Position numbers and translations under genes: made by a program. Source: Eledone cirrhosa (taxonomy: Eukaryota). Taken from it: a stretch of 64,000 nucleotides of DNA. Below the pieces are notes generated by a model. The model saw nothing but the letters and a program-made list of their open reading frames with translations, had not been told where the DNA came from and did not search any database. Shown here one piece after another: positions 2,588 through 60,458 of this stretch (position 1 is the first letter of the stretch; the number at the start of each line of letters is the position of its first letter). The stretch is from NCBI GenBank assembly GCA_964016885.1, contig CAXHJY010000301.1:124001-188000 (forward strand), read 5' to 3'.

Positions 2588-5472
2588 ATATAAATGAAAA
2601 TATTACGAAAGAGAATACAGACTGTTAGAACATGTCTATAAAATAAGCTCCTACGCATGTTTTGCTCGAAAAGGGCTTCTCAAGGGCATATAGGTAGGAT
2701 TAGTAAGGTGATCCTCGATAGGGTAATACTTGAACTTAATAGCAAAGCTAAGGTCTGTCTCTGAAACAACACCGACCAGGTCATTACATGGTTCACTGAG
2801 CTGCCTGATAAGACAGCTCTAAAATTCATCCAGTTTGACATAGACAATTACTATGCCTCTATCTCCCCCATATTCTTAAACAAGGCCCTTATTTTAGCTA
2901 GATCTAACACAAGCCTCACTAAAAAAGAGATAGATATAGTACTAGCAGCGTGCAGAACCATTATCCAGTTCGAAGGCTGCCAATGGACAAGAACCAACCA
3001 TCCTGATAACTTTGATATCACGATGGGGTCTAGTGACTCGCCACAAGCAACTGACCTGGTTGGCATATATCTCCTCCATAGACTTAGGGACGAGATCCCT
3101 GTCCTACAAGGAGGTGTATATAGGGACAGCGTCCTATTTACCGTTAAGAACCATAGCCCCCGCCGGTTAGAGAACCTTAACAAGTGCATACACTGGTTCT
3201 TCAAATCCTACGGCCTCTCCGTAACTATAGACCTCAACCACCAGATAGTCAATTTCCTAGACGTGACCCTGGAGTTGGGTACAGGCCTGTACAAGCCATA
3301 CCATAAGCCTGGTGAGGTTCTATCATATATAAATTATGCATCCAACCACCCTAAGTCTACCCTCAACTCCATAGTATATAGCATATCCCATAGGATCTCG
3401 AGGCTATCCGCCCATGAGGTATCTTCAACCAAGCAGCTGACTACTACAATAAGGCCTTGGTGGATGCGGGTTATAACCGAATAATCTCCTACCTCCTTAA
3501 CGCTGACTCTAGAACCCCCGCCCCCATTATAGGACTAATGTTATAGCGAACCATACCAATAACCAAATACGCAGCGGTCATGATAGAGTCAATAATTATA
3601 GAATAGAGAATCGCAGTAAGAAACACGGCCGTCGCGATAACTACATAGGTGGAGGTATAGACGGACTACCGCAAACTAAGGGTCAAGAAACGGGTAACGG
3701 TAGCCGTTGCAGCCTACTAGAACTATTCCCTGCCTATAGGATTAACAATAGTGATGGCCTTTTACCTACACCCTCCAACCGGCATATAGCTACACGAAAA
3801 CGTAACGCAAGGAAAGCTAGTACACCCGAACATAAAGCGAGGGGGATGCGCAATAGGCAGCAGCACAGTAGCAACAATAAGAACGGTTACCTAGCCAACA
3901 CAACCTGTAATAAGCCCACGGCTACGCGTAACTGCCAACGTAATGTCCTATGGTTCCATCCTCCCTACTCTTGGAGTGTGGCCTCTGACTTACCTAGAAT
4001 ATTCTTCGAAGCCTTAGAGAAGAACTTCCCACCTGACCATAAGTACAGAAAAATCCTCAACAAGAACAACATTAAAATATCCTTCTCCACTACACCTAAT
4101 CTAGCCGACATCATAGGGATAACTAACTACAGTAAACTCACCAATACACGGCACCATAGCAGCGATACTTCTAGACATTACAGCAACTCTGATAACCTTA
4201 ACGTTTCCCTAGCAGCACCCGACAATGTTGGCAGCAGCTCCAACTGACGCAACTGCCAAAACGGCGGTGAGACCAAGGAGCACACTGGCGACCCGTATGG
4301 GACGAGATGCTGCAATAGAAGGTGCTATTGCACGCAAAGTAATAATTGTACTATCCCGCGTACCCTCGGATATGATAGTACTAACTACGGAGATAGCGGC
4401 GGCGGTGTGGATGATAACGTCAGTAGTAATAGTAATAGACTTACTTCGGGCACTAGAAGCTACCGCAGCAGCAGCGACCGCGGCCGATACTGCAACTGTC
4501 GAGACCAGGGAAGCTGCCTAACTGACAATGTTATCTATAGGTGCACTGTAACTAGCCATAATAGTGTCAAATATTATGGCTCATTCAAAACTAGATTTCG
4601 AACGCATCTCCACTCTTTTAGAAACAGGAAGCTAAGGTACTCCACATCACTCCACATCCACTCCAACATCAGCTGCTCCACTCACTGGGAAATTGTCAGC
4701 AGGGCAACACCTTTCAACTTTAAGAAGTGCCAGCTCTGTCTCATGGAACTATACCATATTGTACGGGCACCCCTGGATATCATCAATAGCAGAGCCGAAT
4801 CTGTGATAAACTGTGGACACAGAATACAGCAGTCATTCTATGGTTGGACCCCGGTTGATATCAGAACGCCATAAAAACTGGAGCCTCCTGCACCAAGCCA
4901 TAACATGCTGGAGGATGGGGTGCATAATTAGACATCTGTACAATCACTTTGGAAGGTAATAGTACTGTACACCCACCCCCACACATCAACTATGCCTCTT
5001 AGATCTGGCCTGACTAAGCAGTAGTAAATTGGCACCCATGAACTAGAAGTAGAGAATAATTATCATGTGACTGGATGATAAGTCCTTTAGGGACACATAT
5101 TCAAACACTGGTCAGAGTTACTCCCCTTGCTCTGTGATACACACAGCCATGTGTGTTTGAGATAAACATGAACTTCGACGTTGTTATCATTTTAAAATCC
5201 CTTCTGGGTTCTGTATTGAACACTTTCTTGCATTATATGCCCTTGAGAAGCCCTTTTCGGGCGAAACGTACGTAGGAGCTTATTTTATAGACATGTTCTA
5301 ACAGTCTGTATTCTCTTTCGTAATATTTTCATTTATATTAACGCTTCCGATATTTAACCCTGTAGGCACAAGTATTGAGCACAAATGCACCAGCTTATGG
5401 CAACTAACTATATGTATCGCCTCTCCCTATAAACCTTCTACTCTCTCACAATACTAAAATATTTTATTATGT
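2588..5472 (+). mobile_element. Penelope-like retroelement (family 1), 5'-truncated and decayed, RT plus C-terminal GIY-YIG
   Basis: Fragments FIQFDIDNYY, MGSSDSPQATDLVG, GVYRD, NFLDVTL, SNHP, WFHPPY, CNCR...VIYRC...YYG...CQLC...CGH. 2588-2692 is the inverted copy of 5234-5338, followed by a ~135-bp tail; (TA)n flanks. Confidence 0.9.
5241..5276 (+). ncRNA. Minimal hammerhead ribozyme motif (variant core UUGAGAA) in PLE family 1 pLTR
   Basis: CC-UUGAGAA-GCCC(uuuuc)GGGC-GAA-ACGUACGU-A-GG: U3-A8 covariation, palindromic stem III, GUA cleavage triplet. A mutated inverted copy lies at ~2650-2686. Confidence 0.75.
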
Positions 5473-5487
5473 ATATATATATATATA

Positions 5488-6512
5488 AGACAACTACAAG
5501 AGAGGTTCTTCGAGAATAATAAGCCACTATACTTAGCTTTTGTTGACCTAGAGAATGTCTTTGATAGAGTACCCCAATCTGTTATCTGGTGGTCCCTAAG
5601 GAAACTAGGTGTAGAGGAATGGCTTGTGAGGACAGTGCAAGCTATGTACCAAGGTGCTGACAGTAAAGTGAGAGTAAGAATTTAGTTTAGGGAGGAATTC
5701 CAGATACAAGTAGGAGTGCATCAGGGTTCGGTCCTCAGCCCACTCTTATTCATTATAGTTCTCCAAGCCATAACAGAGCAGTTTTCGACTGGCTGCCCAT
5801 GAGAACTTCTCTATACAGTAGATGTTCAGGAAAATTTGATAGAAGTGGCAGTGATAGACACATTTTTCAAATGCAGGTAGGATCTATAGAGGTGGTTGAT
5901 AGCTTCCGATACCTAGGTGATCAGGTTAGCAAGGGAGGAGTGTGCTCCGAGGCCATAGTATCTAGAATAAGGATGGGTTGGAAGAAGTTTAGTGAGCTGC
6001 TTCCTCTGCTGACAAAGAATGGTTTCTCCCTACGAACGAAAGGCCGGTTATATGATGCATGTGTGAGATGCACGATTCTGCATGGTAGCGAGACATGGGC
6101 AAAAACTGTGGAGTATATGCGATGGCTAGAGAGAAATGAAGTAAGCATGCTCCAATGGATGTGCAATGTCAATGTATGTGAATGACCAAGCATAGACAAG
6201 TTGAGAGAGAAATTGTGTATAAGAGGGATAAACTGTAGTGTGCGGGAAAGAAGACTGCATTGGTATGGACATGTGATGCACATGGAGGATGACCGGTCTG
6301 TAAAGAAGTGCCAAGAAATCCCAGTGGAAGGAAGACGCAGTAGAGGAAGACCACGAAAATCAGGGTGGAGGTGGTGAGAGCTGACCTCAGATCGCTGAAG
6401 CTCACAGAAGAAATGACAAAGGACTGTGATGAATGGAGAGATGCTGTGCTGAAAAAGGACCCGTCCCACTCTTGCAATCAGGGAAAAGCGGACGTAAAAT
6501 GATGATGATGAC
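5488..6512 (+). mobile_element. RTE/BovB-like LINE 3' fragment, internally deleted
   Basis: Degenerate LAFVDLE, GVHQGSVLSP, DSFRYLG, LHGSETW, WYGHV motifs; (TGA)n tail. Confidence 0.9.
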
Positions 6513-6524
6513 GTTGATATATAT

Positions 6525-9500
6525 ATTGTTAGCTTACATCTCCAAAGGTCACTTCATTTCCCTTCTGCCCACCCCCCACACACCATAGTTATTTGGTCCA
6601 ATCAAAACTCAGTGGTTTATAGTAAGGTTTCTAACACAAATCTCTATTGCAAAGCCATCGCTTCGGCTACTACTTCTTAAGTTTAGATCTGGTTGTTCTG
6701 TATAATGAATGGACTACAGAGATCGAGAGTTGGAGCACTCTCAATGACAAAGATGAATTCACCTCCTATCTCCAGATGAACATGCAAAAACCTCTCTTTA
6801 TTTCAGACATAGAACACCAACATAAATTCGTTGCCCCCACCCCATCATCTCAGCGAACTCCAAAACTTCAGAGTTGGTACCATGAATGTAGGCACATTGA
6901 ATAGTCAATCAACTGAGGTTGTAGAGATGTTCGAGCGTAAGGAAGTTGGTGTTTGTTATGTTCAAGGGACTAGGTGGAGAGGTGGGTCTGCTAGATTTAT
7001 TGTGGGCAAAAAATGATGCTATAAACTTTTCTGGATGGGAAATGACAACAGGCTGGGTGGAGTAGGAATTATGTTAGAAGAAAAATGGGTAGATAAGGTT
7101 ATTGCTGTAAATAGAGTGAACAACAGAATCATTAATATTCGACAAGTTCTAAATAGAACAACTGTGTCAATAATATCTGCTTATGCACCCCAATCTGACC
7201 TATCTGACATTATAAAAGACAGGTTCTATGGGAAGAATATGGAAGTTGAAGGACGCCATAGCCAGTAACAAATTTAAAAGCATATTACTTGATGGTTTTG
7301 ACAGTAAGGAAGAGCAATTAGAGACGTACAATATAGAGGAACAGTGGGAATTCCTGAAAGTTAACCTGCTGAAGGCGACAGATGAAATCTGTGGCTGGAG
7401 CAGACCTATAGGCAGGAGGAGAGTAACATGGTGGTGGAACAGTAAGGTGGAGGAGTCAATCAAGGCCAAAAGGCAGGCTTGGAAAGTATGGCGGGATGGG
7501 GGAAGTAGAGAACACTATCAGGTGGCTAGGAGAAGTGTACTTTGCAAGAAGGGAAGCAGAGAATAGAAAGTTCAAGCATGTTCTACAACGTGAGGACCAA
7601 AAACGTGAGGTGTTCAGGATTACAAGACAATGTGTCAAGGAAAATTGATATTGTCGGGGAGAAGTGTGTCCGTAATGATGATGGTGTACTTGCTGTCTCT
7701 GATACTGATAAGGAAGTGTCACTACAAGAGACTATTAAATGAGGAGAATAAATGGCATAAAGATAGTCTGCTCCAAATTAATCCAATAGAGGGACCAGCT
7801 GTGCAAGTTAACGGTAGTATAGTAAGTAAGGCAATCAAAGATATGAAGACAGGCAAGGCAGCTGGGCCTTCAGAGGTAGTTGCTGAGATTTTGAAGGCAA
7901 TTGGAATGGTGGGACATACTATGGTCACCTGTAAACCAAGTAATACAGAATGGGGTCATACCAAATGACTGGCATAGCAGCAGCATCGTTAACTGCTACA
8001 AGGGTAAAAGAGATGCTCTAGATGGGGAAACTATAGAAGCAGTAAGTTAGTTGACCAGGTCATGAAGGTCACACAAAGAGTTATCGCACAACTGATTAGA
8101 GACCAAATTGATCTAGATGAAATGCAGTTTGGATTTGTGCCAGGTAAAAGTACCACAGATGCTCTCTTTGTACGGCAACTACAGGAGAAGAACCTAGCTA
8201 AAAGTAAACCCCTCTACTTAGCTTTTGTTGACTTGGAGAAAGCCTTCGACAAAATCCCCCACTCCGTTATCTGGTGGCCTCTTAGAAAACTAGGAGTAGA
8301 TGAGTGGCTTGTGAGAGCTATAAAAGCCATGTATAGAGGAATAGTCAGCAAGGTTAGAATTCACAATGAATATAGTGAAGAATTTAGCATAAAAGTTGAT
8401 GTTCACCAAGGTTCCGTCCTTAGCCCCTCCTGTTTATTATTGCCCTACAGGCTATAACAGAAGAGTTTAAGACTGGCTGCCAATGGGAACTTCTATATGC
8501 AGATGATCTAACTCACATAGCTGAATCTATGGTTGAACTAGAGAAGAAATTCCAAACCTGGAAGGTTGGCCTAGCATCAAAAGGCCTTAATGTTAACTTG
8601 TCTAAGACTAAAGTTCTAGTATGTACAAATGAAAATAGGGCACAGGTGCCCTCTGGGAAATGGCTTTGCTCAGTGTGTAGGAAAGGAGTAGCTAGAAAAT
8701 CCATTCTATGTCCCAAATGCAAACTACGGGTACATAAAAGATGTAGTGGATCACAGGCAAGTTATCTAAGAAAGTAGATTTTATATGTAGCTGATGCTCA
8801 GGTGCAGTAAGTAGCAAGGACCCACTGGATACTAGCTCCTTCTATTGCCCATATGGTTCTATAGAAATAGTAAACACTTTCCATTACCTTGGTGACAAAA
8901 TCAGCAGTGGAGGACGGTGCTCTGAAAGTACAGTAGCCAGAGTGAGAATGGGATGGAAAAAGTTCAGAGAGCTAATACCGCTGTTGGCCACAAAAGGTTT
9001 CTCTAAAAATGAAAGGCAGATTGTATGATGCTTATATACGAACAGCGATGTTACATGGCAGTAAGACCTGGGCATTGTGTGCAGAGGATCTGCGCAGATT
9101 AGAAAGGAACGAAGCATGCATTCTCCGATGGATGTGTAATAGTAATATACGTGAACGGCAAAACGTAAATGAACTAAATGAGAAATTAGGCATAAGAGGG
9201 ATCAGATGCAATTTACTTGAGAGGAGATTATGTTGGTATGGTCATGTGATGCGTATGAAGGATGGCAGCTGTATAAAAAAACTGCAGGGCAATCAAAATT
9301 GATGGAAGCTACGGAGTGAGTAGACCAAGAAAAACCTCGGGCGAAGTGATAAAAGCTGACCTTGCACACTTGAACCTCTCTAAAGCAATGTCACAGTATC
9401 CAGATCTTTGGCGTTATGCAGTAATACAGAAGACCCGCCTTCCCTTACATACAAACTTAAACCTACAGTTAGTAGGCACCTCTTAATCCAATATACACCC

Positions 9501-9750
9501 CACACAGCCCTTTCTCTGATGTTCTGTTGGTACCACAGAACATCCGGTCCACACTGTAAAGTTGTCGTGTAGGAGACACGGTAAAAAGGCTCCCAGTCCA
9601 CACACTGTAAATGTGGTTGGTGCTAGGAAGGGCATCCAGCCATAGAAAACCAGCCAGAAATGGTCCTAGATGAGCGAAACATGGTCACCCAACCCAACTT
9701 GCCTCAAGTGGGACAAACCCGCCCAACCCTTGAAATGATGATGATAATGA
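6525..9750 (+). mobile_element. RTE/BovB-like LINE, near full-length but degenerate (APE, RT, PHD-like finger, 3' UTR)
   Basis: GTMNVGTL, SAYAPQ, EMQFGF, FVDLEKAFD, LLYADD, CSVC...CPKC..HKRC fragments with many stops and an internal deletion near 7230; (TGA)n tail. Confidence 0.92.
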
Positions 9751-10728: not shown

Positions 10729-10775
<47 letters not shown>

Positions 10776-21222: not shown

Positions 21223-21444
21223 ATATTTATTAAAATAACAGATTAAAGTTTAAGCAAAGAATCGCTGCTTTCACCCTTAACGGGATCTTCTGAATATCCC
21301 GTTAAGGGTGAAAGCAGCGATTCTTTGCTTAAACTTTAATCTGTTATTTTAATAAATATTTGCTCTACGGTTCTTATATATTTGATATATATCTATCCTT
21401 ATCGAGCCCTCTTTGGATTTTAGTCTTCAAATTTATTATTATTA

Positions 21445-21448
<4 letters not shown>
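21223..21448 (+). mobile_element. Miniature Penelope-like hairpin insertion (family 5 pLTR only)
   Basis: Perfect 64-bp arms 21223-21286/21296-21359, identical to the end of the PLE at 36945-37015, plus a ~90-bp tail whose end matches 39521-39553; (TA)n flanks. Confidence 0.85.
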
Positions 21449-21492
<44 letters not shown>

Positions 21493-21529: not shown

Positions 21530-21751
21530 AACTATCGAAGGGTCGCTGAAGTTTGGATGGATGAATTTAAAGAATATATTTATCTACGAAGACCTCATTA
21601 TAGGGATATTAACCCTGGTGACATTAGCGCTCAACTTGAAATAAAGCATAGACTACACTGCAAGTCCTTTAGCTGGTTTATGAAAGAGGTTGCATTTGAT
21701 TTACCAAAATTCTATCCACCAGTTGAACCACCGAATATTGCTGATGGTGAG
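21530..21751 (+). CDS. GALNT10: GALNT10-like exon (end of catalytic domain and linker)
   Basis: Polypyrimidine tract plus ctacAG, GTGTGT donor. [24 protein letters not shown]...[31 protein letters not shown]; [12 protein letters not shown] is characteristic of GALNT10. 222 bp. Confidence 0.96.
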
Positions 21752-22342
21752 GTGTGTATATCTGTATATATTGTATATATATTGTGTTTGGTTTATTGTT
21801 TAAATATGAATATATATGTGTGTGAGTATGAATATATATATATAATAAGGAGTTGACGGACCCAGCATATTTATCAATGCCAGGACCGGTTGTATCTCAG
21901 CGCACTCAATAGGCAATGTAAGATACATTCCCAGAGTATACACATAGTTATTCGCTTCAATACAACACACGTAAAACGGGTGCCTATAATGGTTCCTGGA
22001 CTATATATATATTCTTTTTCTCTCATAACCCAACCCAACATCAAAATAAAAGTAAATGAATAAAACAAACCAAGACCCATCACATGAAATACATTTACTC
22101 AGCTACAAAAACACATTTAACATAATTTATTAATCATCTAAAACTAACTCTTAAACATTGTATCATACCCATACCAACAAACTAAACGTTGCATAATTGG
22201 GAGTTTGTGAGTGTATTTAAAAGAAAACCAAAAGCTTGAAGGGATTTAAAGCATTTTTACACACGGCCATGCAAGAATGGTGATGATGACACACTCATAC
22301 ACACACACACTTGTACATATATATCTATCTCTTTCTTCCCAG

Positions 22343-22450
22343 ATCCGCAACAAAGCCAGCAATCTATGTCTTGATACTCGGTTCCGTGGACCGAATGAGC
22401 GTTTTCAAGTTGAAGCATGTATTAAGGATGGGCAAGCCCAAGGAGAACAG
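22343..22450 (+). CDS. GALNT10: GALNT10-like exon (start of ricin-B lectin domain)
   Basis: cttcccAG acceptor, GTACAG donor. IRNKASNLCLDTRFRGPNERFQVEACIKDGQAQGEQ (lectin alpha repeat CLD). 108 bp. No further exon was recognised in the window. Confidence 0.92.
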
Positions 22451-30686: not shown

Positions 30687-31020
30687 ACAAAATGAAAAAT
30701 AACCGAGGTGCCCTACACGAGTGAAAGTATAAAGAAAAAAAGATGAAATCGAAAATGCAACTGAAGTCTTATTTTAAAAAAAATATATTTATTTGGTTCC
30801 TTTACCGGTTTCGCAGTTCTTCTGCTTTTCAAAAGTAGAGTTGAGATGGAGGGTCTGTGGTTTTTCTCACATCTGATGTGAGAAAAACCACAGACCCTCC
30901 ATCTCAACTCTACTTTTGAAAAGCAGAAGAACTGCGAAACCGGTAAAGGAACCAAATAAATATATTTTTTTAAAAATAAGACTTCAGTTGCATTTTCGAT
31001 TTCATCTTTTTTTCTTTATA
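30687..31020. mobile_element. Penelope-like pLTR palindrome (family 2, no ORF)
   Basis: 146-bp arms 30728-30873/30875-31020 with a 1-nt loop and about one mismatch; ~40-bp tail on the left; each arm contains a hammerhead motif. Confidence 0.8.
30913..30948 (+). ncRNA. Minimal hammerhead ribozyme motif (variant core UUGAAAA)
   Basis: CUU-UUGAAAA-GCAG(aagaa)CUGC-GAA-ACCGGU-A-AAG; mirror copy on the minus strand at 30800-30835. Confidence 0.78.
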
Positions 31021-35880: not shown

Positions 35881-36674
35881 GTATATATATATCTGTCCCC
35901 TTAATCTATTTTATCTCTCATTCCTCCCTCTGATGAATGTACTGTACCGATTGTGTTGTTATTTCTGTTTACCTTTTACATGTATATATATATTAGTTTT
36001 GCGAGGTTTTTTATATGAAATCGTGTGTCGAAATAAATATTGTTATGTAAAGTAAACCCCGTATAAACTGTAAAACTAGAAACATAGTCTATAGGATAAG
36101 ATGTACAGAAGGTACTTGCAGAAACATGACAATAACATACATAGGCGAGACAGCTCGTAGAATAGGTGAAAGGATAGACCAACAGGGGGGGAGGGGGGAC
36201 TAAAAGGACGAAAAAACGGTTCAGTACTATACGAACATGCCAGACAACAACACGGCAGTAACATAGACAACATAGAAAAATATCTAAACATAGAAATGAC
36301 CCAGCAGATAGGCAAATCAGAGAGGCCAGTGAAATAGAACTTAGAAGGCCAAGGCTAAACTGAAAAAAATGAATGGAATAACAACAACACCCAAACAAAC
36401 AACACTGACCTAAGAGAAGTATAAATAAATAAATAAATACATACACAAGCACAGTAACAACAAGCACATATAAACACACACTAGCAAACTAAGATAGAAT
36501 ACAATAACCAATACACAGTCACCCAAACACGAACACACGTCAAACAAAACACTATACACGCACGCAAACGCATGCGCAGAAAAGACAAAAAAAACCAAAA
36601 CAAATAAATAAATAAATAAATAAACAGACTAAATAAAGATGGCGTAAGCATACAATACAACGGGAGGAAACATA

Positions 36675-36728
36675 ATAGCACCACTGATGATGTTGCAGAT
36701 GTGCAACGAAATAACTTTGTTAGACTAT
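36675..36728 (+). ncRNA. Hammerhead-like motif (canonical CUGAUGA core, imperfect cleavage site) in an orphan pLTR-like segment
   Basis: CUGAUGA-uGUUGCA(gaug)UGCAAC-GAA-AUAAC(uuu)GUUA-GA; position 16.1 is G instead of U. Confidence 0.45.
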
Positions 36729-36944
36729 ATTTATGTGTTTGTGTCTATATTGTATCTGTATTTTTGACCGTTGGCCAGTCAATGGTAACATTGAGGACCG
36801 AATAAATTAAATTAAATTAACCAATATAAAAGACACAGAAGCGAAAACCAACCAAACTGAGTGTGTTCTGTTATTAATTCTGGCAATATGACCCTCCCCA
36901 AGTATAACAATATATATATATGCATATATATATATATGTATATA

Positions 36945-39551
36945 TATTTATTAAAATAACAGATTAAAGTTTAAGCAAAGAATCGCTGCTTTCACCCTTA
37001 ACGGGATCTTCTGAAACTAACAAAGTCAATCTGTAAACGCAGAACTGGATATTTCAAAAAACGTTGCAACCGGAGGAAGACAGGAAGGCGATACTTTGGT
37101 TCGTGGTAACGTTCACTGGCAAAGAACGGGAAAAAACGAATAATACGTCATTGATAGGAGCGGTGAAAAACAATTACGCGCAAAGACAGAACCACGTTTA
37201 TGGTATAAAAGAGGTCGTAGACTAATGTTCTCTTAGGTGGTGCATAGAGACGTTCTCTGGCAATAAATGAAAAAACGAAGAAATAAGTCATATGTGGAGC
37301 ATAGAGAACAATAGCACGCAAAGACAAAACCACGTAAATGGTATAGCAGAAGTCATAGACTAAAATTCTAACTAGGAGACCAAATGAATCTCCGCTACGG
37401 AGTTAAGAACAAAGTAAATAAATACAATACAGAAGTAATAGAAACAAATAAATACATACACGCAAACAGATACGTACATACACAAGCATACGCAAAACCT
37501 TACCATCCGTATACAAAACCACGCACATATAAATATGTGTGTGTGTGTGTGTGCTTGTGTACAAATAAATAAATAATTATATAAACGTATATAAGTAAAT
37601 AAATACGTATATAACAAGCGCACACGCATACCTACATATAAATACACGAATTTCGGAGACGTAAGTCAACTACAAGAGGTACACATATACACACACTCAC
37701 CATATGTACGAACCTGCATACTCACGCAGACGCAAAAATCCCGTATACACATAGCCAAACCCTAAATACCAGAATTATACGCCATAACAGTCAAATATAC
37801 GTACAAGAAGGTATATATACCTTCACAAAACATACGGGTAATATATACTTACCTATGCAAATAAGTAAAGGAATAAACAAAACATATACTTAGCTCCCAC
37901 ATCAAGATGTAAAATACCCACGTATAGATCGTGCTATCCGTTAGGGTATAACGTGGGGCTGTAATACAGGAAAGTTTTGTGCAATTTATGTTTACAAGCC
38001 GAAATTGCCTCAGATTTTTTGTTTAAGATGTGGTCTGTGGCATAGAGTATTTCCAGGGCCTCAGCGGCGCAGAGGTCACATGGTCTTTTATTTCCGTTAT
38101 ACGATCTAGCCCTAGCTAGGATCTCCCAGTGTAACTTATATTGGGTGCGGTTGTCTTTTAGACTCCAGATATAAGCTGAAAGTGACGTCATATTCCTTCT
38201 TAGAGGGTAACGAAAAGAATGGGTATGCATGTAAAGACGCTGCTTGAAACTATTGGCGGTTAACCCTATGTAGGCCCTACAGGACGTGGGTGTTACAACC
38301 TTACATTTGTAGACAATGTTACTAGAGAGGCATTTCCCGGATAGGGGGCAATCAACCCGATTCCTACAATTACAATTAGTACTAACTACAGGGTTGCACG
38401 TGTTCCTACGGCTAGGTAGTTTAGCTAAATTTGAAGCTGTGATGTTATGTGCAAGGTTAGGAGTCGTAGAGTAAGAAATTTTAATAGTATTTCTATTAAA
38501 AATTTTACTATATTTATGTGTAGGGGGAAAAATGCTTCGTAATAAGGGAAAGAAAGATCTTAGCTAATGGTGTGGCTACCTCCATATTATATGGTGGGTT
38601 AAACCAACAAATGCGACGGGATCTATTTCTTCTAGGTCTATTTTCGTACTCTGTATATGCTACCTTATCGACAAATCCACTTCGAGCAAGAGCTTCATTG
38701 TAATAAGTGGAATGGTCGTTGAAAATGCGCTCGTTGGTGGAAAGACGGGAGAGCCTCAACGAAACGTTTCTTACCAGGTTCTTGGTTATGCTGGCAGGAT
38801 GGTTGGAATGCTTACTTATGTAATTAAGCATATCATTCGGCTTTCTATACGGGTAATACAACCCATTCAATAAATTGAGGGTAACGTCGAGGTAATTAAC
38901 GACCGAGAGATTGGCCTCAACCTGTATAGAGAGGTTGAAGCCTTTGAAGAAGGCTGTGAGTTCTTTTCTGAACCTGTTGCAAGCACGAGGTCCGCACTTA
39001 GTCATGGTCAAAAGACCATCGTCACGGTACAAACCACCGCCCGCGTTGCGGAATTCGTCCTTGATAGAGAAAAGAAGGAAAAGGCCAATAAGATCAGTAA
39101 CCTCCGCAGAGTCACTGGCGCCCATACTCACGTCGAATGGGCTACTATTGGCTTTTTTAATCCAAATAGAGTCGTCGAAATTAATCACCGACTTTCGGGC
39201 ATTAAGGATGACATCAACTTCAAAATCCTTAACCACTGTGAGTGTTTTAGCGAAATTGATAGCTCTAAGGAGAAGTGGTAAAGTGATGGAGGAGTAGTAC
39301 TTGTTGATGTCGAATTGGATAAAACGGCAATGTTCCTTGTTACATATGCCGTTGAACCAATCAATCACCGCGAAAGAATTGTTCCACAGTGCGAGAGGGG
39401 CCAAACTTCTAATTTCAGGTATAATTCTATCAAGAATCGTTTTACTAAGTCTACCTAAATCGGACTTCGTAGGGTTAATAAGCCGAATAGAGGGGTTGTT
39501 CGGAAAATTAGATTTGTGATGGATTCTAGTCTTCAATTTTATTATTATTAC

Positions 39552-39978: not shown

Positions 39979-42900
39979 CTATCTAAGGCGGGTAAAATTC
40001 CCGAGATCCATGGACGAGTTCTCTCCAGCGGTCTCTGTCCCTCATTATCGCTGCCATGTCCTGCGTCTCCAACAGACCAGTGTCTGTCCTTAGGGCATCA
40101 ACATATGTTAACCTTGGTCTTCCTCTTCCAGTGTGTCCATGTAGGGGCTCCCAAAGGAGCACGGAGTGCAATGTCAACTCTGGATGTCGGTGAGCATGTC
40201 CAGCCAACCTCAGTCTCCTCTGTGTCACTTTTGAGCTGACTTTTGGGAGGCTCCCATACAGCTCTGAGTTTTTCATCCTCAGTGTATACTGATTAATGTT
40301 CAGAGCCATCCTCAGCATTCTCGTGTAGCACCCATCCACCATCTGAGTGAGTCTCTTGGTCAGTGTCCAAGTCTCAGACCCACACAGCAGCACAGACTCC
40401 ACTACAGCAATGAAGAGGCGGATTTTCAGGTCTCTACGAAGGTCCGACTTCCACACCGATCTCAAGCTGTGGCACGCCGCCCAGGCCTTGCTCTTCCTCT
40501 CAACCACATCATCTTCCGTATTCCCAATCTCTGCTCCCAAATACAGGAAGTCCTCAACCAATTCCAGCGGCTTCCCGCCTACATTAGTGATCCCCTCTGG
40601 CTTCTCAACATTCTCTACCAGATATTTTGTTTTAGTCTCATTCTCAGCCCCACACTCATCGACACAGTCTCAACCTCCCGCATCAAATCCTCTGCCTCCT
40701 TCACTGTATTTGTCACCAAAACTATGTCGTCGGCAAATTCAGCATCCGATACCTTTTTCGCCCCAACTCTCCTGCTCTGAGCCGGTGCTACAGTAAAGCC
40801 AGAGTCCTGGTGTTTCTCCAGTGCAAGGCGCATACAATAGTCCACTACGATGATAAAAAGGTAGGGAGCCAATGTATCTCCCTGGAGCACTCCAGCCAGT
40901 ATCTCAAAGAACTCTGTCATCCCATCAGGTGTAATGACTTGGGCTTTGGTGTTGGTGTAGAGCAGTGATATCAGGTCCACTATCCTCTTGGGGATTCCAT
41001 AAGCCCGCAAGATCTTCATCAGGCAGTAACGGTCCACAGAATCAAAGGCCTTCCTAAAGTCAATGAAAACCATGACCGCAGGAAGGCACTTTGCTCTAGC
41101 TCCCTCTAATATCCTCCTCAGCATCAGGATGTGACTGGTGGTTGATCTACCCTCTCTGAAGCCGTTCTGGTTGTCCCTGAGCTTCTTCTCCATCTCAGGC
41201 TGGATCCTGTTAAGAATCATCCTGTTGAGGGTCTTTGCCACAAGTGACGTCAGTGAGATCCCCCGGTAGTTGTTGGTGTTAGAGAGATCTCCCTTCTTTG
41301 GCACTGGGACGATGTTACTGATCCTCCACTGATTCGGGGCAACTCCTTTCTCCAGTGCCCCGTTACAGAACCCCAGGATGATATCATCAAAATCACACCA
41401 CTTCATCACCTCTGATGCTACTCCATCTTCTCCATGAGCCTTGCCCTCCTTGATCTTCTTCTTGGCTCTCTGAAGCTCCTCTCTGGTGAAGGACTCTGTC
41501 TCAACATCCAGTTCCTCAAACAGCCGCCTGATCTCCCCAGTGCTCTGGGCTGTGGAGGGTGGCTCTCCTAGTAGGGTCCTAAAATGGTCTAGCCATTTCC
41601 TCTTCCTATCCTCGGGCCCCGTTCCCTGGATCTGACTCGAACACCTTTTCTTCCTCCCTGTGATCTCGTTGATGATCATCCAGCTCTCCTTACATCCAGA
41701 TCTGTCAACCGCTCTCTCCACACTTCTGATCTTCTCTATCAGTGCCTCCTCTCTGACCTCAGTGTAAGCGGTACAGAGCTCTTCCCTCATCACCTCCACA
41801 GTCTCCATCCTCTCCTCCGTAGGATCAGCATAGAATTGGTCCCTGGCAGCTTTCAGGTGTTCTCTGGCTGCACACACTTTTGGGTCTGCAGAGCTGACGT
41901 GCTTCCCTTTGTTCTTTTTCCTCGGCACCAGGGTTTCACTTGCTTTCGCCACTGCATTGGTGAAGTGCCCGTACCTCCCCGTCACACTCTCCTCAGTCCA
42001 TCCAATCTCTCTCTCCTCTGACTCTCCACACAGAGCACTAAACCTGTTTCTCACTTCCACTGTGAACCTCTCCTGTAGCTTATCATCTTCCTTGAAAGCT
42101 CCCCAGTCATAGATTGTTCTCCGGGGCTGAGCCTTGCTCTTTCTTAAGCTCACGCGGACCTCACTCATAACAAGCCGGTGGTCACTACCCAGTGTACTGA
42201 AATAGCTGTATGGTTCCGTGTTCAGAACACTATTCCGCCACTTTTTCCTCACCAGAATGAAATCAATCTGGGACTTGGACAGGTGCATATCTGAGATGTA
42301 GGTCCACATCTTCCCCAGATTCTTCCTAAACCTTAGGTTGGTCGCCATCAAGTTCGCCTCCAGCAGGGTGTCTCTCAGTAGTCTTCCATTTCGGTTGGTG
42401 TTGTTATGGAAGTACCAGCAAGGATCTTCACTGCCCTCCTTACTCAGATGTGCATTGAAGTCCCCCAAAACAAGCAGGATATTGTGTGCCTGAGTGGTGT
42501 TGACAGCTCTACACACTTCCTCATGGAACTCCTCGGCATTCACATCACTGTCCCCCTCGGTTGGACTATAGGCTGAGATGACTGTCAGTCTTGGGTTTCC
42601 ATTGAAGGTCACCCTCAACACTCGCGGGGAGATAGGCATTATTTCCCTCACCAACAGATTGGTTTTTGCACTGAACACAAAACCCACTCCTCCTACTGCA
42701 GCATTTGTTGTGTTCTTCACTGCCGATGTAGTGATGAGCTGGCTCTTCCTCCCGATCATCACACTCCTCACGGGCTCATCGTGTAGAATCCTGTGTTCTT
42801 GGATCGCAAGTATCTGTATACCACTCTCCTCGAACAGATGTCCCAACTCCTCTCTCTTCTCCAGCGTTCGAATAGTCCTCACATTCAAAGTGCCCATTTT

Positions 42901-43045
42901 GATGGCTCCTCTGCAGGACAAAACTGCATTCTTTATATTTGTCTCAGAGACAGCTGATCCATCATCCACTGGCCCTCTCTGTGGCTCTAAGCCAGCAGAG
43001 TCATAACGACCAGGCTGCTCCTTGACAGTGTCATTAGGGGCTCTA
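39975..43045 (-). mobile_element. Near-intact RTE-group LINE of a distinct family (APE plus RT, no PHD finger)
   Basis: 784-aa ORF 40615-42969 (GTLNVRT, IQEHR, SAYSPT, GDFNAH, IDFILV, SDHRLV; PKKGD..NYRGISL, FIDFRKAFD, GVLQGDTLAP, FADD) and 192-aa ORF 39983-40561, separated by one frameshift. Confidence 0.95.
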
Positions 43046-43371
43046 ATATATATATATATCTTGATCGCTCATGAAATCCACCCAGATTATGCTGACCGGA
43101 TAACCATGTTGCTTGTTTATTTTCCTATCTTCGGTTTGCTTTTATCCTTCTATGTTGTTTACTGGTCTCACTCGCTTTGCGCGATTTACTTGTCACAATA
43201 GCTTTTTTTAGTTATTGCTCGCACCAACCTGAGGTATATGATTTTTAATGCGATGAAATATCAATGATGGTTGGCAAATCACTGACGAGGGACTAATTTT
43301 ATCATATGTAACCCATGTGCAACCACGCAGTATTCTTCTTTCTTCTCGTTTTATTTATATATATATATATA

Positions 43372-49197: not shown

Positions 49198-49201
<4 letters not shown>

Positions 49202-52200
49202 ATAATAATACTATTTATAGTTATGTATATAGTATAAACAACTATAAACAGGAAGGTCAGTAATTTCCTACTACCTTATTACCAGTAAAAAAAATAGCTC
49301 AATGTATGAACATCAGTTGTTTTGCAGAGCAGGAAAATAAATAAATTAGACAATTATCAAAGTTGTGTTCAAATCATTTAATAGCTGACAATCGTTTCTT
49401 CCAAACTCTCATTTGGAGTCATCGGGGCATTATCAATGTTTGTACATGTAATTAACCTCCTATTCAACTGAACAATAATATAGATACATATATATTGACG
49501 TTGTGAGCAACAGTTTCGTATTTATAGGGTGGAATGGATGTGACATATATTTTACGAGAATTGTACAAAAATTAAAATTCAAATTAAAAGCACAGAGTGG
49601 AATACATGCAACAGATAATACAAGAGAATAGTCTAAAATTAAAGAGGCATTGTGAAAGGAGCTTTGAGAAAGAAAGAGTTCCTTAGCAATACATATGCAG
49701 TCGTGTAGAAAGTGCACATGCGTTAGTCATATATATGAGAAGGAAATAAGTAAAGTTATTATGCATATATAGATAAAAAAAATACTGTATTTTAAGCAAA
49801 AATGTAATGTACTAAAATCTAGTGTTTGAATTTGTGTGTGTTGAGAAGAATAAAGTTATTGCAGTCTCTTCCATTACATATGTTGAATTATATTTTAGTT
49901 CATGTTTATATTGTTTGTTTTAAGTTAGTTAAAGCAATGGATTGTAAATTAGTCTTATTGTATTTATATTCATGGACTATAGTTGTTCAACAGGTAGATT
50001 TTCCAACGGTTAAATTTCCGGAAGTGGGTAAGGTGAGCTAATGCATAAGGGGAGGTAACTAGCTAATTAAATTCAGTTATTCAAAATCTTTGCTCTAACA
50101 CAACTTTGATAATTGTCTAATTTATTTATTTTCCTGCTCTGTAAAACAACTGATGTTCTTACATTGAGCTATTTCTCTTACTGGTAATAAGGTAGTAGGA
50201 AATTACTGACCTTCCTGTTTATAGTTGTTTATACTATATACATAACTATAAATAGTATTATTATTATTTACTGCTCCATACAGTTGAGCTAACATACATT
50301 AAATTACCAGTATGCTTATCAAAGATTAGCTTCCTATGTCTACTAAGAACATACCAATACCACCTAAAGATACATACGAAAAATTATTGATTAATAGTGT
50401 CAACTCTTTTATCAATAGAGTGAGATGGAGGACATTCCATTACAATAGAAACCGTTCAGACAAAAACAGAGATATAAATAACTTCGACACTTACGGCTTT
50501 AAAACATTTAAAAGCCCTCCTCACAACACCTTATTAAACTCTTTTGAAAATGATCTAATTAAACTAGTTAAGAACATAAAATACAAAAAACATTGTAATA
50601 GAAATAACACCTTCTTAAACTACCACTATTAAAGGATTTAAAAAAAAAAAAAAAATCCTAGTACATGCAGATAAAACTAATAATATATATAACTTAGATT
50701 ACGATACTTATAGAAAATTTATATATAAGGAACTGAATAGGAGCTACAAGAAAACTACTACTAAAAACCTAGAAGATATAAATATAGAAGGCCGTAGTAT
50801 AGTGTGTAAATTAGGACTTCAGAGACATACACAGCCATACACCCCTAATCTCCCAAGATTCTCTCTGAAGGGCCATAAAGAAGACTTCATTAGTAACCCT
50901 TCAATAAGGCTAATTTGCCCTTCCAAATCTGACATTGGTATTATCAGCAAGAAAATATTAGATAGAATCATCCCACAATTTAAGCACAAAATATATCTTA
51001 ACCAATGGGGAAATACAGGTGAAGTTATTGAATGATTCAAGGGTATTAAAGAGAGTAAAAATAAAAAATTTATAGAATTTGATATCAATTCATACTACAC
51101 CTCTATTTCCCCTATCCTATTAAATAAGGCTTTAATTATGGCCATGAACAATAGTGACCTGACTAGATCCCAAATTGATGTCATACTTGCGGTCTGAAAA
51201 ACCATAATTACGTTTGAAGACCAATTATGGACCCGCAAAGATACGCATAACAACTTTGACATAACTATAGGATCTAGTACTCGGTGCAGGTCACTGATTT
51301 GGTGGGCCTATATCTACTAAATGAAATTCATAAGAACCTATCCTACCTCACTGGTGGTTTATACCGCGATGGTGCACTACTCCTTATAGACTATAAAAAA
51401 TTTAATATAGAAAAAACTAGGAAACAATTACACAAAATTTTCAAAAACTTCAACTTAAGTATCACCTTAGATAAAAACACTAAAAATGTTAACTTCCTTG
51501 ATGCTACCTTTTGCCTAGACTCTAAAATATACACACCCTATCATAAACCTAACGAAAAACTAATTTATGTGAACACCAACTCTAACCACCCTAAATCCAT
51601 ATTAAACTCTATTACTAAAGGAATATCTAATAGAATCTCTAATCTATCATATAATGAAACCATATTTAACAATAATTCACAATACTATAATGAGGCCTTA
51701 GCTAAATCAGGACATAGGAATGAGATTGAACTCCTACCTATAAAATCACATAGTTACATTATTTCTCATAATATGGCCATGAGGAAAAATAGTAAAAACA
51801 CTAGCCACTATAACTCTAGGACGAAGATTAATACCAAACTTAACTCGCACCAACGTAAACACCACAATAATAATATAAACAGGGAAATAAATACCTAAAA
51901 AAACTACTAAAAACAAAAATAGGAGAACTAATACATTCTTCAATCCCCCTTTCAATCTAAACGTCTCTACCAACTTGCCTAAGGCTTTCTTCTCAATCTT
52001 AGAAAAAAACTTCCCCTCCGGCCACAAGTACCATAACCTTATCAATAAAAATACTATTAAAATCTTGTACTCCACCACACCTAACATAGCATACCATATA
52101 GCTAGTAGTAATAAAAGGAAGATTAATAATTATTTCTAACTAATTAAAACACAACAGGAGGTAAACTTAGTACCTGTAAACAATAGTAGTAATAATAGTA

Positions 52201-54130
52201 ATAATGATTGTAGCACTAATGAAATCAATAACAATACGAATGACAGGCATCATTATTTTTAGTGCTATCCCTAGCAACCAGAATTCTTCAAAACATAGGA
52301 ACCGGCAAGCTGACATCCAGAATAAATGTAACTGTAGAACTAATAGAACTTGCCCCTTAGGTAATAATTGCTTAACCAAAGACATCATCTACTCATGCAC
52401 CGTCAATGCAAACAACTCTTCTAAAAGATATATCGGCTCTACTTCGAACAGCTTCAAGACGAGATACAACTCGCACCTCCACTCTTTAAAAAAACACAAT
52501 CTAGCCAACTCCACTTCTTTATCTAGATACATACACTCTCTGAAAACTAGGAATAGACCATTTACACTGCAATGGGAAGTAGTAGGTAGGGCCTCATCGT
52601 ATAAACCACCAAATAAATTGTGTAATCTCTGTCTTCCAGGGACCCATACTATAATCTTTTCGAAACTAGACCTCCTTAATAGAAAGTCAGAGACATTTTC
52701 CTCATGCCAACACCGATACCGTCACTCGTTCCATAACTTTAAACCTAGCTGTTAGTATATATCAATGTCAGATTTGAATTCCCCACCACCATTAACACTT
52801 CACATCTAGGACTTATCTGCCCCCACAGCTACACACTCTTTGATCAGCTCTTTCCTCTACACAACTCCTATTTATCTCTAACCTTATACTCTGCAATAAC
52901 TGTTAGAATTAAACATAAAGTTACCACCTTTTGATATAACTACTATAGCTTAATTATATTATATACAGTAATGGATATTTAATATGTAGAGACATTTAAT
53001 GTAATGTGTAAGAATAAACTATATATACAATTAAATACTTAAATTAATAACATGTATATAAGGGATCTACCTTTAACACAATGTAATAATAATAAAGTAT
53101 ATATACATTTATAATTAAATATATATAAGGGATTAATTTTTAAACAATGTATATTATTACACAAATGATATATCTATTTGGACATATAAACAGCCATACA
53201 ATTTTCCATAACATATATCTTGTCCAGTAATGAATGGATAACAATCTTAAGGGACCTTTAATGTATTATAATAAAATACACTGTATTTAAAATCAAGTAT
53301 AAATGTATAGCAGTATGTAATAGAGATTCAATTGTATCACATGTATTAGAGCAAAGATTTTGAATAACTGAATTTAATTAGCTAGTTACCTCCCCTTACG
53401 CATTAGCTCCCCTTACTCACTTCCGGAAATTTAACCGTTGGAAAATCTACCTGTTGAACAACTATAGTCCATGAATATAAATACAATAAGACTAATTTAC
53501 AATCCATTGCTTTAACTAACCTAAAACATTCAGTGCAAACATTAACTAAAATATAATTCAACATATGTAATGGAAGAGACTGCAATAACTTTATTCTTCT
53601 CAACACACACAAATTCAAACACTATCAACAAACTATGTCCACCTTAGATTTTAATACATTACATTTTTGCTTAAAATACAGTATTTATTTATCTATAGAT
53701 ACATAATAACTTTGCTTATTTCCTTCTCATATATATGACTAACGCATGTGCACTTTCTACACACCTGCATATGTATTGCTAAGGAACTCTTTCTTTCTCA
53801 AAGCTCCTTTCACAATGCCTCTTTAAATATTAGACTATTCTCTTGTATTATCTGTTGCATGTATTCCACTCTGTGCTTTTAATTTGAATTTTAATTTTTG
53901 TACAATTCTCGTAAAATATATGTCACATCCATTCCACCCTATAAATACGAAACTGTTGCTCACAACATCAATATATATGTATCTATATTATTGTTCAGTT
54001 GAATAGGAGGTTAATTACATGTACAAACATTGATAATGCTCCGATGACTCCAAATGAGAGTTTGGAAGAAACGATTGTCAGCTGTTAAATGATTTGAACA
54101 CAACTTTGATAATTGTCTAATTTATTTATT

Positions 54131-54131
<1 letters not shown>
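49198..54131 (+). mobile_element. Penelope-like element (family 4), full-length decayed ORF with inverted arm
   Basis: ORF pieces 50336-52755: STKNIPIP..RVRWR, IRLICPSKSDIG, FIEFDI, GLYRDG, FFNPPF, CNCR..CPL..CL..IIYSC..YIG..CNLC..CQH. 49198-50098 is the inverted copy of 53346-54131 plus tail. Related to family 3. Confidence 0.93.
54038..54082 (+). ncRNA. Minimal hammerhead ribozyme motif (variant core CCGAUGA)
   Basis: GCU-CCGAUGA-cUCCAAAU(gaga)GUUUGGAa-GAA-ACGAUUGU-C-AGC; GUC cleavage triplet; mirror copy at ~49384-49428. Confidence 0.77.
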
Positions 54132-57291
<3,160 letters not shown>

Positions 57292-57292
<1 letters not shown>

Positions 57293-60200
57293 TATGGAAA
57301 GTTATATTTAAATTGTTGGGTTACAACTAGTAAATATTTATAACTGATATAAAAGCACTCAACAAGTATTTGGAGTATATTTACTATATTAAATAAATGG
57401 AAACTATATTTATAAAACCATATTTATTTCATTATATATATTTCAGGGATATCATATTAACAATATGTTATGCCTTCCTCAGACAAAATACAATATAGAC
57501 AGTTTTATAGATAAATAGATTTGACATACCGTTCAACATCGACTTGTATTTGAGAAAGTTGATTTGGCAGTGAAAAAATTGTAAACAGAAAGAAAGAAAG
57601 AGAGAAAGAAGGCAAGAAAGAAAGAAAATGAAGAAAAAGAAGAAATGCATGTGACAAAATAGAGAGATGGAAAGATAGATAAAGAGAAGAACTTCATGTA
57701 AAGAAACAGAGAGAGATATATATATAGAGAGAGGAAATAGATAGAGATAGATATATATAGAGAAAAGTAGGTAGTTGGAACGTATCAATGATACATTTAT
57801 TTATTTATTTATTTAGCTCTAGTATTAATGTAAGGGAGATATATGTGGTTAGGAAAGAAACCAGCCGTTATATAGAGAGAAAAATGAAAAGTAACCAGAC
57901 ATAGGCGAGGCATAATTTAAAAACCCTATGTTTTAATGTAGAAGTATTAGTACGTATAAAAACCAGGCGCTATAATGTAAATATCAGTATTCCTGAATGA
58001 GACACGTATCCATAATGTGTGAAAAGTAATGATCTTATGTTTAGTTTTAAAAATTCATATGTTTATATGATAACTACAAACATCGATGTGAATTTACGTG
58101 ATCAATTCTGCAAACCCCTATTTCACACGGAGAACATTCTCATTGTGCTATAAAAATTTAAGTATACATATATGTGTATATATATACACATATATATAGA
58201 GTCTATATTAATTTTAACAATACTATTCTTGTCTTTACTCTACATGATTATCTATCAAGCAGAAATAGAGAACAGATTTCAATATATTAATAAAAAAATA
58301 TCAGAAACAAAAACAAAAAATAATAATGATAATAATAATAATAAATAATAATAAAATAGAAAACTAAAAAATAAAATAAAAAATAAAAAATATTACAAAA
58401 AAATATTACATATTAAAAATAAAAATATTAGAAAATATTACAATAATAAAAATAAAAATAAACCACAAAGATCAACCCTTCAAAATTAATTGACAATATA
58501 TTGCCAAGTTCATTATAAGCATCAGAGTCGAAAACAGATAAAGCTAAAAAATTTATCAAATTGCGTCTAGCAAAAATCATTTAAAAAAGTTTAGGATGCC
58601 CATTTGGTCTACATGTGTTCTTATATTTAATATAGAAGTTTATCTAGTGTAACGTTTATTCGAAATATTTGGAGCATCAACTTTTAGGGTAGTTTAATTT
58701 TTCATGAAGAATGTTTAAATAAAAATAAAAATAAAAATACAAAGAAGAAATCGAAAAATAAAAAGAAGAAATCTTCAACAGCACTATCAGGCGCACTCTG
58801 GCAACTTAAGCTAGATAACGTTAGATATTCGACGGCTTGGAATATAGTCTCAAAAGGGATTCCTTTTAATTCATCCTCTGAGACATGTGACCTCTGCGCA
58901 GAGGAGATATTCTTTATACTAAAATCTAAAAATTCCCTTAATCTACGGACAAATTTATTCAGTTGCTGCAAACATAGATTAAACTCAACTTTTAAATATA
59001 AATTTAAATTTAAAATGTAGTATATTTAGTTTGTTTTATAATTATTTAGGAAACTAGCCGATAAATCTTTCGATTTCTTCTTTTTCTTTTTATTTTTATT
59101 TTTATTTTTATTTAAACATTCTTCATGAAAAATTAAACTACCCTAAAAGTTGATGCTCCAAATATTTCGAATAAACGTTACACTAGATAAACTTCTATAT
59201 TAAATATAAGAACACATGTAGACCAAATGGGCATCCTAAACTTTTTGAAATGATTTTTGCTAGACGCGATTTGATAAATTTTTTAGCTTTATCTGTTTTC
59301 GACTCTGATGCTTATAATGAACTTGGCAATATATTGTCAATTAATTTTGAAGGGTTGATCTTTGTGGTTTATTTTTATTTTTATTATTGTAATATTTTCT
59401 AATATTTTTATTTTTAATATGTAATATTTTTTTGTAATATTTTTTATTTTTATTTTATTTTTTAGTTTTCTATTTTATTATTATTTATTATTATTATTAT
59501 CATTATTATTTTTTGTTTTTGTTTCTGATATTTTTTTTTTTTTAATTAATATATTGAAATCTGTTCTCTATTTCTGCTTGATAGATAATCATGTAGAGTA
59601 AAGACAAGAATAGTATTGTTAAAATTAATATAGACTCTATATATATGTGTATATATATACACATATGTATACTTAAATTTTTATAGCACAATGAGAATGT
59701 TCTCCGTGTGAAATAGGGGTTTGCAGAATTGATCACGTAAATTCACATCGATGTTTGTAGTTATCATATAAACATATGAATTTTTAAAACTAAATAAGAT
59801 CATTACTTTTCACACATTATGGATACGTGTCTCATTCAGGAATACTGATATTTACATTATAGCGCCTGGTTTTTATACGTACTAATACTTCTACATTAAA
59901 ACATAGGGTTTTTAAATTATGCCTCGCCTATGTCTGGTTACTTTTCATTTTTCTCTCTATATAACGGCTGGTTTCTTTCCTAACCACATATATCTCCCTT
60001 ACATTAATACTAGAGCTAAATAAATAAATAAATAAATGTATCATTGATACGTTCCAACTACCTACTTTTCTCTATATATATCTATCTCTATCTATTTCCT
60101 CTCTCTATATATATATCTCTCTCTGTTTCTTTACATGAAGTTCTTCTCTTTATCTATCTTTCTATCTCTCTATTTTGTTACATGCATTTCTTCTTTTTTT

Positions 60201-60458
60201 TCTTCTTTTTCTTCATTTTCTTTCTTTCTTTCCTTCCTTCTCTCTTTCTTTCTTTCTGTTTACAATTTTTTCTCTGCCAAATCAACTTTCTCAAATACAA
60301 GTCGATGTTGAACGGTATGTCAAATCTATTTATCTATAAAACTGTCTATATTGTATTTTGTCTGAGGAAGGCATAACATATTGTTAATATGATATCCCTG
60401 AAATATATATAATGAAATAAATATGGTTTTATAAATATAGTTTCCATTTATTTAATAT
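57292..60458 (+). mobile_element. Penelope-like element (family 6): 1.37-kb inverted arms around a GIY-YIG C-terminal remnant
   Basis: Arms 57386-58756/59068-60458. Centre 58757-59020 reads STALSGALWQLK..WNIVSK..CDLCAEE..LNLR..CCKHR (not in the ORF track); ~95-bp tail on the left. Confidence 0.88.
60358..60415 (+). ncRNA. Hammerhead ribozyme motif (canonical core CUGAGGA, long stem II)
   Basis: CUGAGGA-AGGcAUAaCAUAUU(guu)AAUAUGaUAUcCCU-GAA-AUAUAUAU-A; mirror copy at ~57429-57486. Confidence 0.7.

Follow-up and report, generated by a model that had tools for sequence, protein, structure and literature searches.

The window analysed here, a stretch of 64,000 nucleotides from Eledone cirrhosa (assembly GCA_964016885.1, contig CAXHJY010000301.1, positions 124,001 to 188,000), contains several families of Penelope-like elements (PLEs) and one family without a linked protein, designated A to F, which carry compact hammerhead motifs near the ends of their pseudo-long terminal repeats (pseudo-LTRs). 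In some of these families U4, the normally invariant letter of the CUGA turn, has been replaced for good, by A in family D (U4A) and by C in families C and C′ (U4C). In family D, moreover, the element's RNA likely begins, capped, with the motif. The elements and motifs of the window are the following:

2588–5338 (+): family A, Hydra-clade PLE, 5′-truncated and frameshifted, with a 105-nt inverted arm at 2588–2692
Within the arm 2588–2692: decayed left-arm copy of the family A hammerhead
5239–5279 (+): family A hammerhead, UUGAGAA (U3-A8), G10.1-C11.1, palindromic stem III, 2-bp plus bulged stem I; predicted cut after 5274
21223–21455 (unstranded): fold-back of two family D 3′ ends (fold-back 21223–21359) plus a tail on the right arm
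21292 (−): CAGAAGA of the family D hammerhead in this fold-back, the 5′ strand of stem I lost at the inversion junction
30728–31020 (unstranded): family B fold-back, UUGAAAA at 30916 (+) and 30832 (−), stem III ACCGGU, no PLE protein linked
31023–35264 (+): family C, Hydra-clade PLE with inverted arms of 1.26 kb
31110 (−): C3 of the family C mirror hammerhead
35173–35219 (+): family C hammerhead, CCGAAGA (U4C), C10.1-U11.1 mismatch, palindromic stem III; predicted cut after 35215
36044–36913 (+): 3′ end of family F, Neptune-like PLE, GIY-YIG remnant 36060–36421, inverted tail ~35977–36046
36682–36719 (+): family F hammerhead, canonical core, bulged U then G10.1-C11.1, 2-bp stem I, G15.2 changed
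36948–39545 (−): family D, Hydra-clade PLE, 5′-truncated, reverse transcriptase (RT) 38517–39530, GIY-YIG 37937–38563, 3′ untranslated region (UTR) of ~0.9 kb
36968–37018 (−): family D hammerhead, stem I AGUUU/AAACU, CAGAAGA (C3 37013, A4 37012), U10.1-U11.1, 3-bp stem II, hairpin stem III; predicted cut after 36973
37018 (−): putative start of capped transcription in family D, at the first base of stem I; tandem copies have the ATG at +205/+206
49201–54130 (+): family C′, Hydra-clade PLE with inverted arms and tail
Near 49425 (−): C3 of the family C′ mirror hammerhead, stem I broken
54038–54082 (+): family C′ hammerhead, CCGAUGA (U4C), C10.1-A11.1 mismatch; predicted cut after 54079
57386–60458 (+): 3′ part of family E, Hydra-clade PLE with inverted arms of 1.4 kb
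57482 (−): C3 of the family E mirror hammerhead
60354–60419 (+): family E hammerhead, canonical CUGAGGA, 8-bp stem I, palindromic stem III; predicted cut after 60411

A relaxed descriptor, in which position 4 was free, positions 3 and 8 paired and a 10.1-11.1 mismatch optional, matched 10 times in the window, against 0.35 ± 0.6 matches (maximum 2) in 40 local dinucleotide shuffles. The matched cores begin at 5243 (+), 30916 (+) and 30832 (−), 35177 (+) and 31110 (−), 54041 (+), 37013 (−) and 21292 (−), and 60362 (+) and 57482 (−), and comprise motifs listed in an earlier note on this DNA together with mirror copies within the inverted arms. All eight cores of that note are present (A UUGAGAA, B UUGAAAA, C CCGAAGA, C′ CCGAUGA, D CAGAAGA twice, E CUGAGGA and F CUGAUGA). 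Its position for F, 36684 (+), was exact, those for A, B, C, C′ and E were 2–4 nt early, and those for the two D copies lay ~44 nt away, marking the 3′ end of motifs that truly start at 37013 and 21292 on the minus strand. The descriptor misses the F copy at 36684 because of its G15.2-to-U change and 2-bp stem I; the other members of family F, and a sister family whose stem I has 4–5 bp, show that this motif belongs to a real hammerhead lineage, most F copies having the core CUGACGA. Rfam gave no hammerhead match in the window at the gathering score, canonical families included, and this test therefore has little power for such short forms. At E ≤ 5, the best 150 of 361 matches listed included no hammerhead, and a search of 36600–37100 gave no hammerhead either.

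Every motif follows the order of a three-way junction (stem I, core, stem II, GAAA, stem III, NUH, stem I), marginally in F with its 2-bp stem I. G5, A6, A9, G12, A13, A14, A15.1-U16.1 and H17 are intact across the motifs. U4 is kept in A, B, E and F and absent in D (A4) and in C, C′ and a further family, C″ (C4). The 3-8 pair is C-G or U-A in all families, as had been claimed, and is paired in 9/9 of the A/C group comparison. The five self-complementary stems III described earlier are likewise all there, that of C′ requiring a G-U pair; in most copies of family E the stem reads AUAUGUAU. Between the predicted cut and the arm end lie 64 nt in A, 75 in B, 49 in C, 51 in C′, 25 in D (29 in the palindrome), 47 in E and ~196 in F, the last computed from the true core position, so that the proposed spacing of 25–70 nt fails for B and F.

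Protein signatures place A, C, C′, D and E among the Hydra-clade PLEs and make F a probable Neptune-like element. In the Hydra-clade families RT is followed by a GIY-YIG endonuclease at the C terminus, which scored just below the Pfam cut-off in one search, and insertion is into (TA)n with inverted 5′-truncated arms and a tail. The linker CxCx4CP and the CxxC and CxH motifs around E and N appear in D as CNCRNRVDCP and CDLC...ACKH and are similar in A, C, C′ and E. The DKG motif has become DKT, as HADKTNN, in C′ and also in close homologs, that part being missing from the window copies of A, C, D and E. Hydra-clade PLEs, one octopus family among them, share C-terminal GIY-YIG, DKT, a CxC-x-C linker, CxxC/CxH, (TA)n targets and frequent U10.1-U11.1 in the accessible portion of Craig et al., 2021 (PMC8557442), where the linker is of the CxCx5C type, whereas its spacing here is CxCx4CP. 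Family F has CTNRKCIIC, a CX2-5CxxC linker also found in Nematis, ahead of the endonuclease, with RT upstream. Family B, which the earlier note had counted among the PLEs, could not be linked to a PLE protein: its copies, 22 of which were compared from other loci, have ~1 kb of non-coding upstream sequence in common and no open reading frame (ORF) of their own.

The statement that every PLE family in the window bears a motif was too wide, as a palindromic, TA-inserted end at 55141–55311 (+) and 56691–56853 (−) has no hammerhead. This repeated (TA)n fold-back end, a conserved multi-hairpin without hammerhead or Rfam match, recurs at L057, L081, L092, L123, L195 and L239. In L057 and L195/L196 it is preceded by what we take to be a tRNA-like head, with the look of A and B boxes, and the element may thus be a tRNA-derived passenger of the PLE machinery.

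The unusual cores are states of families rather than copy-specific decay. When the D and C/C′ patterns were searched genome-wide as exact matches with position 4 open, A4 was found in 22,207/22,457 matches of D; among 100 listed of the remaining 250, G was counted by hand in 35, U in 36 and C in 29, as random decay would give. C/C′ gave 1,051 matches, and of 100 listed, again counted by hand, 93 had C4 and seven U4. Two C/C′ insertions have U4 in one arm and C4 in the other, as CpG decay after insertion would give. No change at C4 of family C reached at least 5% in contigs of two runs, and no variant reached at least 8% over 36948–37020 in run X1; runs X5 and X6 contain near-identical D copies at low depth and do not constitute independent evidence. 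Across their copies, families A and B retain U3-A8. Chance or decay of single copies can draw on the decayed A left arm, the F copy and one small family split between two CCG and two CUG copies; for A, B, C, C′, D and E it is refuted by the genome-wide counts and the shuffles, and it can practically be set aside.

Sequence constraint extends over the whole D motif. Among 95 family D copies, which were not selected on the full motif sequence, 0/51 motif sites vary between subfamilies, compared with 39/211 upstream (Fisher p = 1.3e-4), and the core letters C3, G5, A6, G8, A9, G12, A13, A14, A15.1, U16.1 and H17 are both intact and invariant. The stem III hairpin of D is the most stable of 21 compared. 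Stem covariation, which the earlier note had named as a check, is present in family E (96.7% paired, 0/500 shuffles; copies collected through a downstream anchor or taken from random DNA) and in the A/C group (83% paired, 0/500 shuffles). It was also considered whether U4 variants require a 10.1-11.1 mismatch. This idea was rejected, as U-U is common in canonical Hydra motifs (23/65 foreign matches) and a small CCGAAGA/CUGAAGA family shows G-C after a bulge.

The copies of family D record where its RNA begins. Many are only 75–160 nt long, and 2,932 matches lack the normal T before AGTTTCAG; by hand count, 22 of 100 listed are intact point mutants and 78 begin exactly at the A, which is window position 37018 and the first base of stem I. 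A G precedes 54 of these 78. For starts at +2, 49 of 100 listed from 1,021 matches are truncated, and 9/49 have a G in front (hand count); G-preceded starts thus differ between +1 and +2 (p = 2e-8), corresponding to ~1,600 versus ~90 copies. In a tandem unit, +1 is followed by the motif to +51, a first end at +75, the tail to +160 and an ATG at +205. None of 55 mapped D copies has its 5′ end at the cleavage site, and ~5 of 100 listed copies begin at most 3 nt away from it, a share no higher than at other places, in a sample biased to truncated copies since the first letter of the pattern excludes most intact ones. In LINE-1 and SVA an untemplated G has been interpreted as the copy of a cap, according to the parts of that literature consulted, and the extra G at +1 of family D is likely the trace of a cap. 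Starts at +1 with an extra G, together with the lack of a pile-up at the cleavage site, suggest that the motif is likely the 5′ end of a capped mRNA that is copied uncut. Missing cleavage-site truncations were dismissed as a mark of inactivity specific to D, for canonical family E behaves the same; RNA templates appear to be uncut in both.

On the strength of these sequence patterns, the modestly favoured reading is that the motifs are type I hammerheads at PLE ends, that U4A and U4C were fixed separately and would be slow or protein-assisted ribozymes, and that the D motif would be the 5′ end of a capped mRNA, reverse-transcribed uncut. A pseudo-LTR promoter would start capped RNA at the first base of stem I, and reverse transcriptase would prime ~+75 or ~+160, behind the motif, and copy back to the cap, which would account for the many copies of 75–160 nt; in tandem transcripts reverse transcription would run through the whole unit. 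Such an internal promoter within the Penelope pseudo-LTR is described in the available part of Schostak et al. Cleavage after +46 would remove the cap from an mRNA whose ORF begins at +205, and fast cleavage would therefore cost protein. Selection might then preserve the fold, so that cleavage could occur late, with the help of protein or in dimers, while tolerating or favouring a detuned core. Most families would limit cleavage by a stem III formed only in dimers; since the stem III of D can close within a single monomer, it is in D that a slower core would have the greatest effect.

The partly available account of Poseidon PAc from the green anole (Frangieh et al., 2024, PMC11167929) offers the closest parallels: two internal priming sites downstream of the hammerhead give a tail, the template is uncut RNA, and the ribozyme is protein-assisted and dispensable for insertion. 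In contrast to D, whose ORF starts 150 nt behind the motif, PAc has a canonical core and an ORF that starts inside the ribozyme, and no cap signature is reported in that part.

Several observations weigh against this reading. No motif folds better than its shuffles as a single strand (z −1.33 to +0.63), and in D the slipped register of stem III is 1.3 kcal/mol more stable than the active one, so that, with a 3-bp stem II, the D motif may be dead. The 15 sites just after the D motif are equally invariant, and the constraint on +1 to +51 could reflect a promoter or protein binding instead of catalysis. The extra G could come from addition by terminal transferase instead of a cap, or in ~10/54 cases from the inverted arm, and the cap signature was not seen in the small samples of other families, a comparison in which the D row was set aside because truncated copies had served as references. 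Canonical family E shows no clear pile-up at the cleavage site, and uncut templates therefore do not single out D; with 20,376 anchor matches and a canonical core, E is also as abundant as D, so that U4A is not needed for success.

In a rather unlikely alternative, the U4A motif, and perhaps the U4C motif, is catalytically dead and is kept as a core promoter or as an RNA handle for the reverse transcriptase. The motif overlaps the inferred start site TTAGTT, which we presume to be initiator-like, and the preferred slipped stem III of D points the same way. Mutating the ribozyme of the anole PLE left insertion in vitro unaffected, and pairwise mutagenesis gave low activity for all changes of the CUGA turn except the 3-8 swap (Roberts et al.), as far as the accessible portions of both studies go. 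Against a dead motif, every other core letter of D is intact and invariant, where a dead core would be expected to drift, and the U4C clade has kept its core letters across three families with compensatory changes in the stems.

The opposite proposal, that the variants are fully active and their cores rescued by an outside contact, is quite improbable. In family D, loop II (GUUAA) could pair with the bases immediately following stem I to give a 5-bp pseudoknot; stem I-stem II pseudoknots are published to accelerate natural hammerheads, and outside contacts have been proposed to offset variant cores in the part of PMC3088659 consulted. The D pairing is, however, A/U-only in A/T-rich sequence and shows no covariation, there being no variation at all; it has no counterpart in the U4C families, and in thousands of copies the motif is present uncut, starting at the inferred cap.

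Another origin for A4 would be its fixation as part of a splice acceptor, TTTCAG, in the core, with splicing removing part of the ribozyme from the mRNA. Both TTTCAG and the upstream TTTGTTAG resemble acceptors, and in Drosophila Penelope (D. virilis) an intron ends at the 5′ end of helix I, according to the text available for PMC4209133. This explanation is very improbable, because the copies listed share no common upstream exon (read by eye), the 3′ UTR holds no donor matching their 5′ letters, the AG is kept in the copies, and U4C would be left unexplained.

Motifs of this kind abound in the genome. A random sample of 1.3 Mb, taken at regular coordinates as 130 stretches of 10 kb, contains 183 matches, against 8–14 in three shuffles: 119 canonical, 21 U3-A8, 19 U4A, six C3-C4 and 18 of background type. 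Scaled up, this gives ~4 x 10^5 motifs, both arms and 16 copies from two tandem arrays being counted; the scaled share of family D, ~44,000, is of the same order as the direct count. In all DNA fetched, 27 motif clusters occur in at least two loci, ~three of them probably by chance, and the genome hosts about two dozen motif families. Two of the loci, L127 with 11 copies and L130 with five, are arrays of 310-bp tandem units, each with a canonical hammerhead and a palindromic stem III, and represent non-LTR retrozymes. A minimal-hammerhead family (L101:8368, L109:9417 and two further copies) is divided between two CCGAAGA and two CUGAAGA cores and may be a second U4C lineage decaying at CpG.

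In a protein tree that holds only families of this genome, D groups with a family of canonical core (support 100), and C, C′ and C″, the three families with U4C, group with A (81); set aside from it were L143 and L150, family A proteins linked to wrong neighbouring motifs, and L112, whose link is uncertain. As D and the U4C families are placed apart, the two changes at position 4 arose separately. Among 95 related loci from metagenomes and contaminated bins, the endonuclease was found in 75 and a motif behind it in 44; of these foreign Hydra-clade motifs 43 are CUGANGA, one is GUGAUCA and none is changed at position 4. The GUGAUCA core, a G3-C8 swap, occurs in both pseudo-LTRs of a metagenome Hydra-clade PLE (L337:284 and L337:2787), a natural form of the classic rescue mutant. 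Single well-formed U4C hammerheads lie elsewhere in contigs of other organisms (L332:1627, +, and L343, −), and U4C is therefore not unique to this genome. No relative was found in IMG/VR. Hydra-clade PLEs also turned up in GTDB bacterial bins of animal-associated samples (L394–L410), where they are probably host contamination.

The repertoire is real, and most of it belongs to a known kind. The available text of Cervera and de la Pena 2014 (PMC4209133) describes hammerheads in PLEs, the U3-A8 swap, a palindromic stem III, dimers and an extreme variety within genomes; their motifs likewise lie near the 3′ end, have a short stem I and a palindromic stem III, include UUGAAAA in Schistosoma and form many families per genome. 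Small PLE hammerheads with a short palindromic stem III and cleavage as dimers, features shared with the motifs here, are those of Lunse, Weinberg and Breaker 2016, as summarized in the review PMC6765202. Natural U3-A8, U10.1-U11.1 and a viroid U4C retain some activity, the viroid U4C being of lowered activity in a viroid that is still infectious (Perreault et al., 2011, PMC3088659, in the portion consulted).

The earlier note's radiation of variants is borne out for the U4A and U4C cores, family-specific master states missed by CUGANGA searches and by Rfam; U3-A8, palindromic stem III and the variety itself had already been described, and 119/183 motifs of the random sample are canonical. The descriptor of Cervera and de la Pena fixes CUGANGA, and the supplementary alignment consulted has no CCGA or CAGA core; their 2,000–9,000 motifs per genome are far below the ~4 x 10^5 estimated here. 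In the Hydra rows of File S2 of Craig et al. (PMC8557442), as far as consulted, all cores are CUGANGA, many with U-U, without U3-A8, U4C or U4A. The variants of Perreault et al. are rare singletons, U4A not being found in the part seen, whereas here it is the master state of a 22,000-copy family. A literature search found no PLE with a U4A or U4C core, most subscription papers, one Cervera 2014 supplement and the Lunse 2016 alignment falling outside its scope. What appears to be new is that U4A and U4C are fixed in families, that the U4A motif is constrained and that its first base bears the likely trace of a cap. Catalysis by the U4A and U4C motifs is a prediction, changes in the turn lowering activity in published mutagenesis.

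Other features of the window include 139-nt inverted repeats of short internal repeats (1–139 and 809–947), similar to the ends of non-autonomous DNA transposons, and an uninterrupted 817-aa endonuclease-RT frame at 40618–43068 (−), a LINE distinct from the abundant RTE-type family. Exon-like frames lie at ~21530–21760, without a Pfam match, and at 22340–22450; they resemble, as we presume, a polypeptide GalNAc transferase, so that a host gene may contain the elements in its introns.

Roughly one in four motifs of this genome would escape censuses based on CUGANGA (46/183 in the random sample). PLE hammerheads cleave poorly and are dispensable for insertion in vitro. Family D is young, with more than 22,000 near-identical copies in which the whole fold is constrained and a supposedly essential core letter is changed, and because its copies record both the RNA start and uncut copying, a role in cleavage can be distinguished directly by experiment from a structural one. 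A tentative proposal is that D carries a natural U4A hammerhead which, located at +1 of the capped mRNA and still cleaving slowly, would act as a tuned self-decapping switch, PLE lineages adjusting their own expression through a detuned stem III (dimer-only) or a detuned core (U4A, U4C). If true, such a switch would give PLE hammerheads a concrete job.

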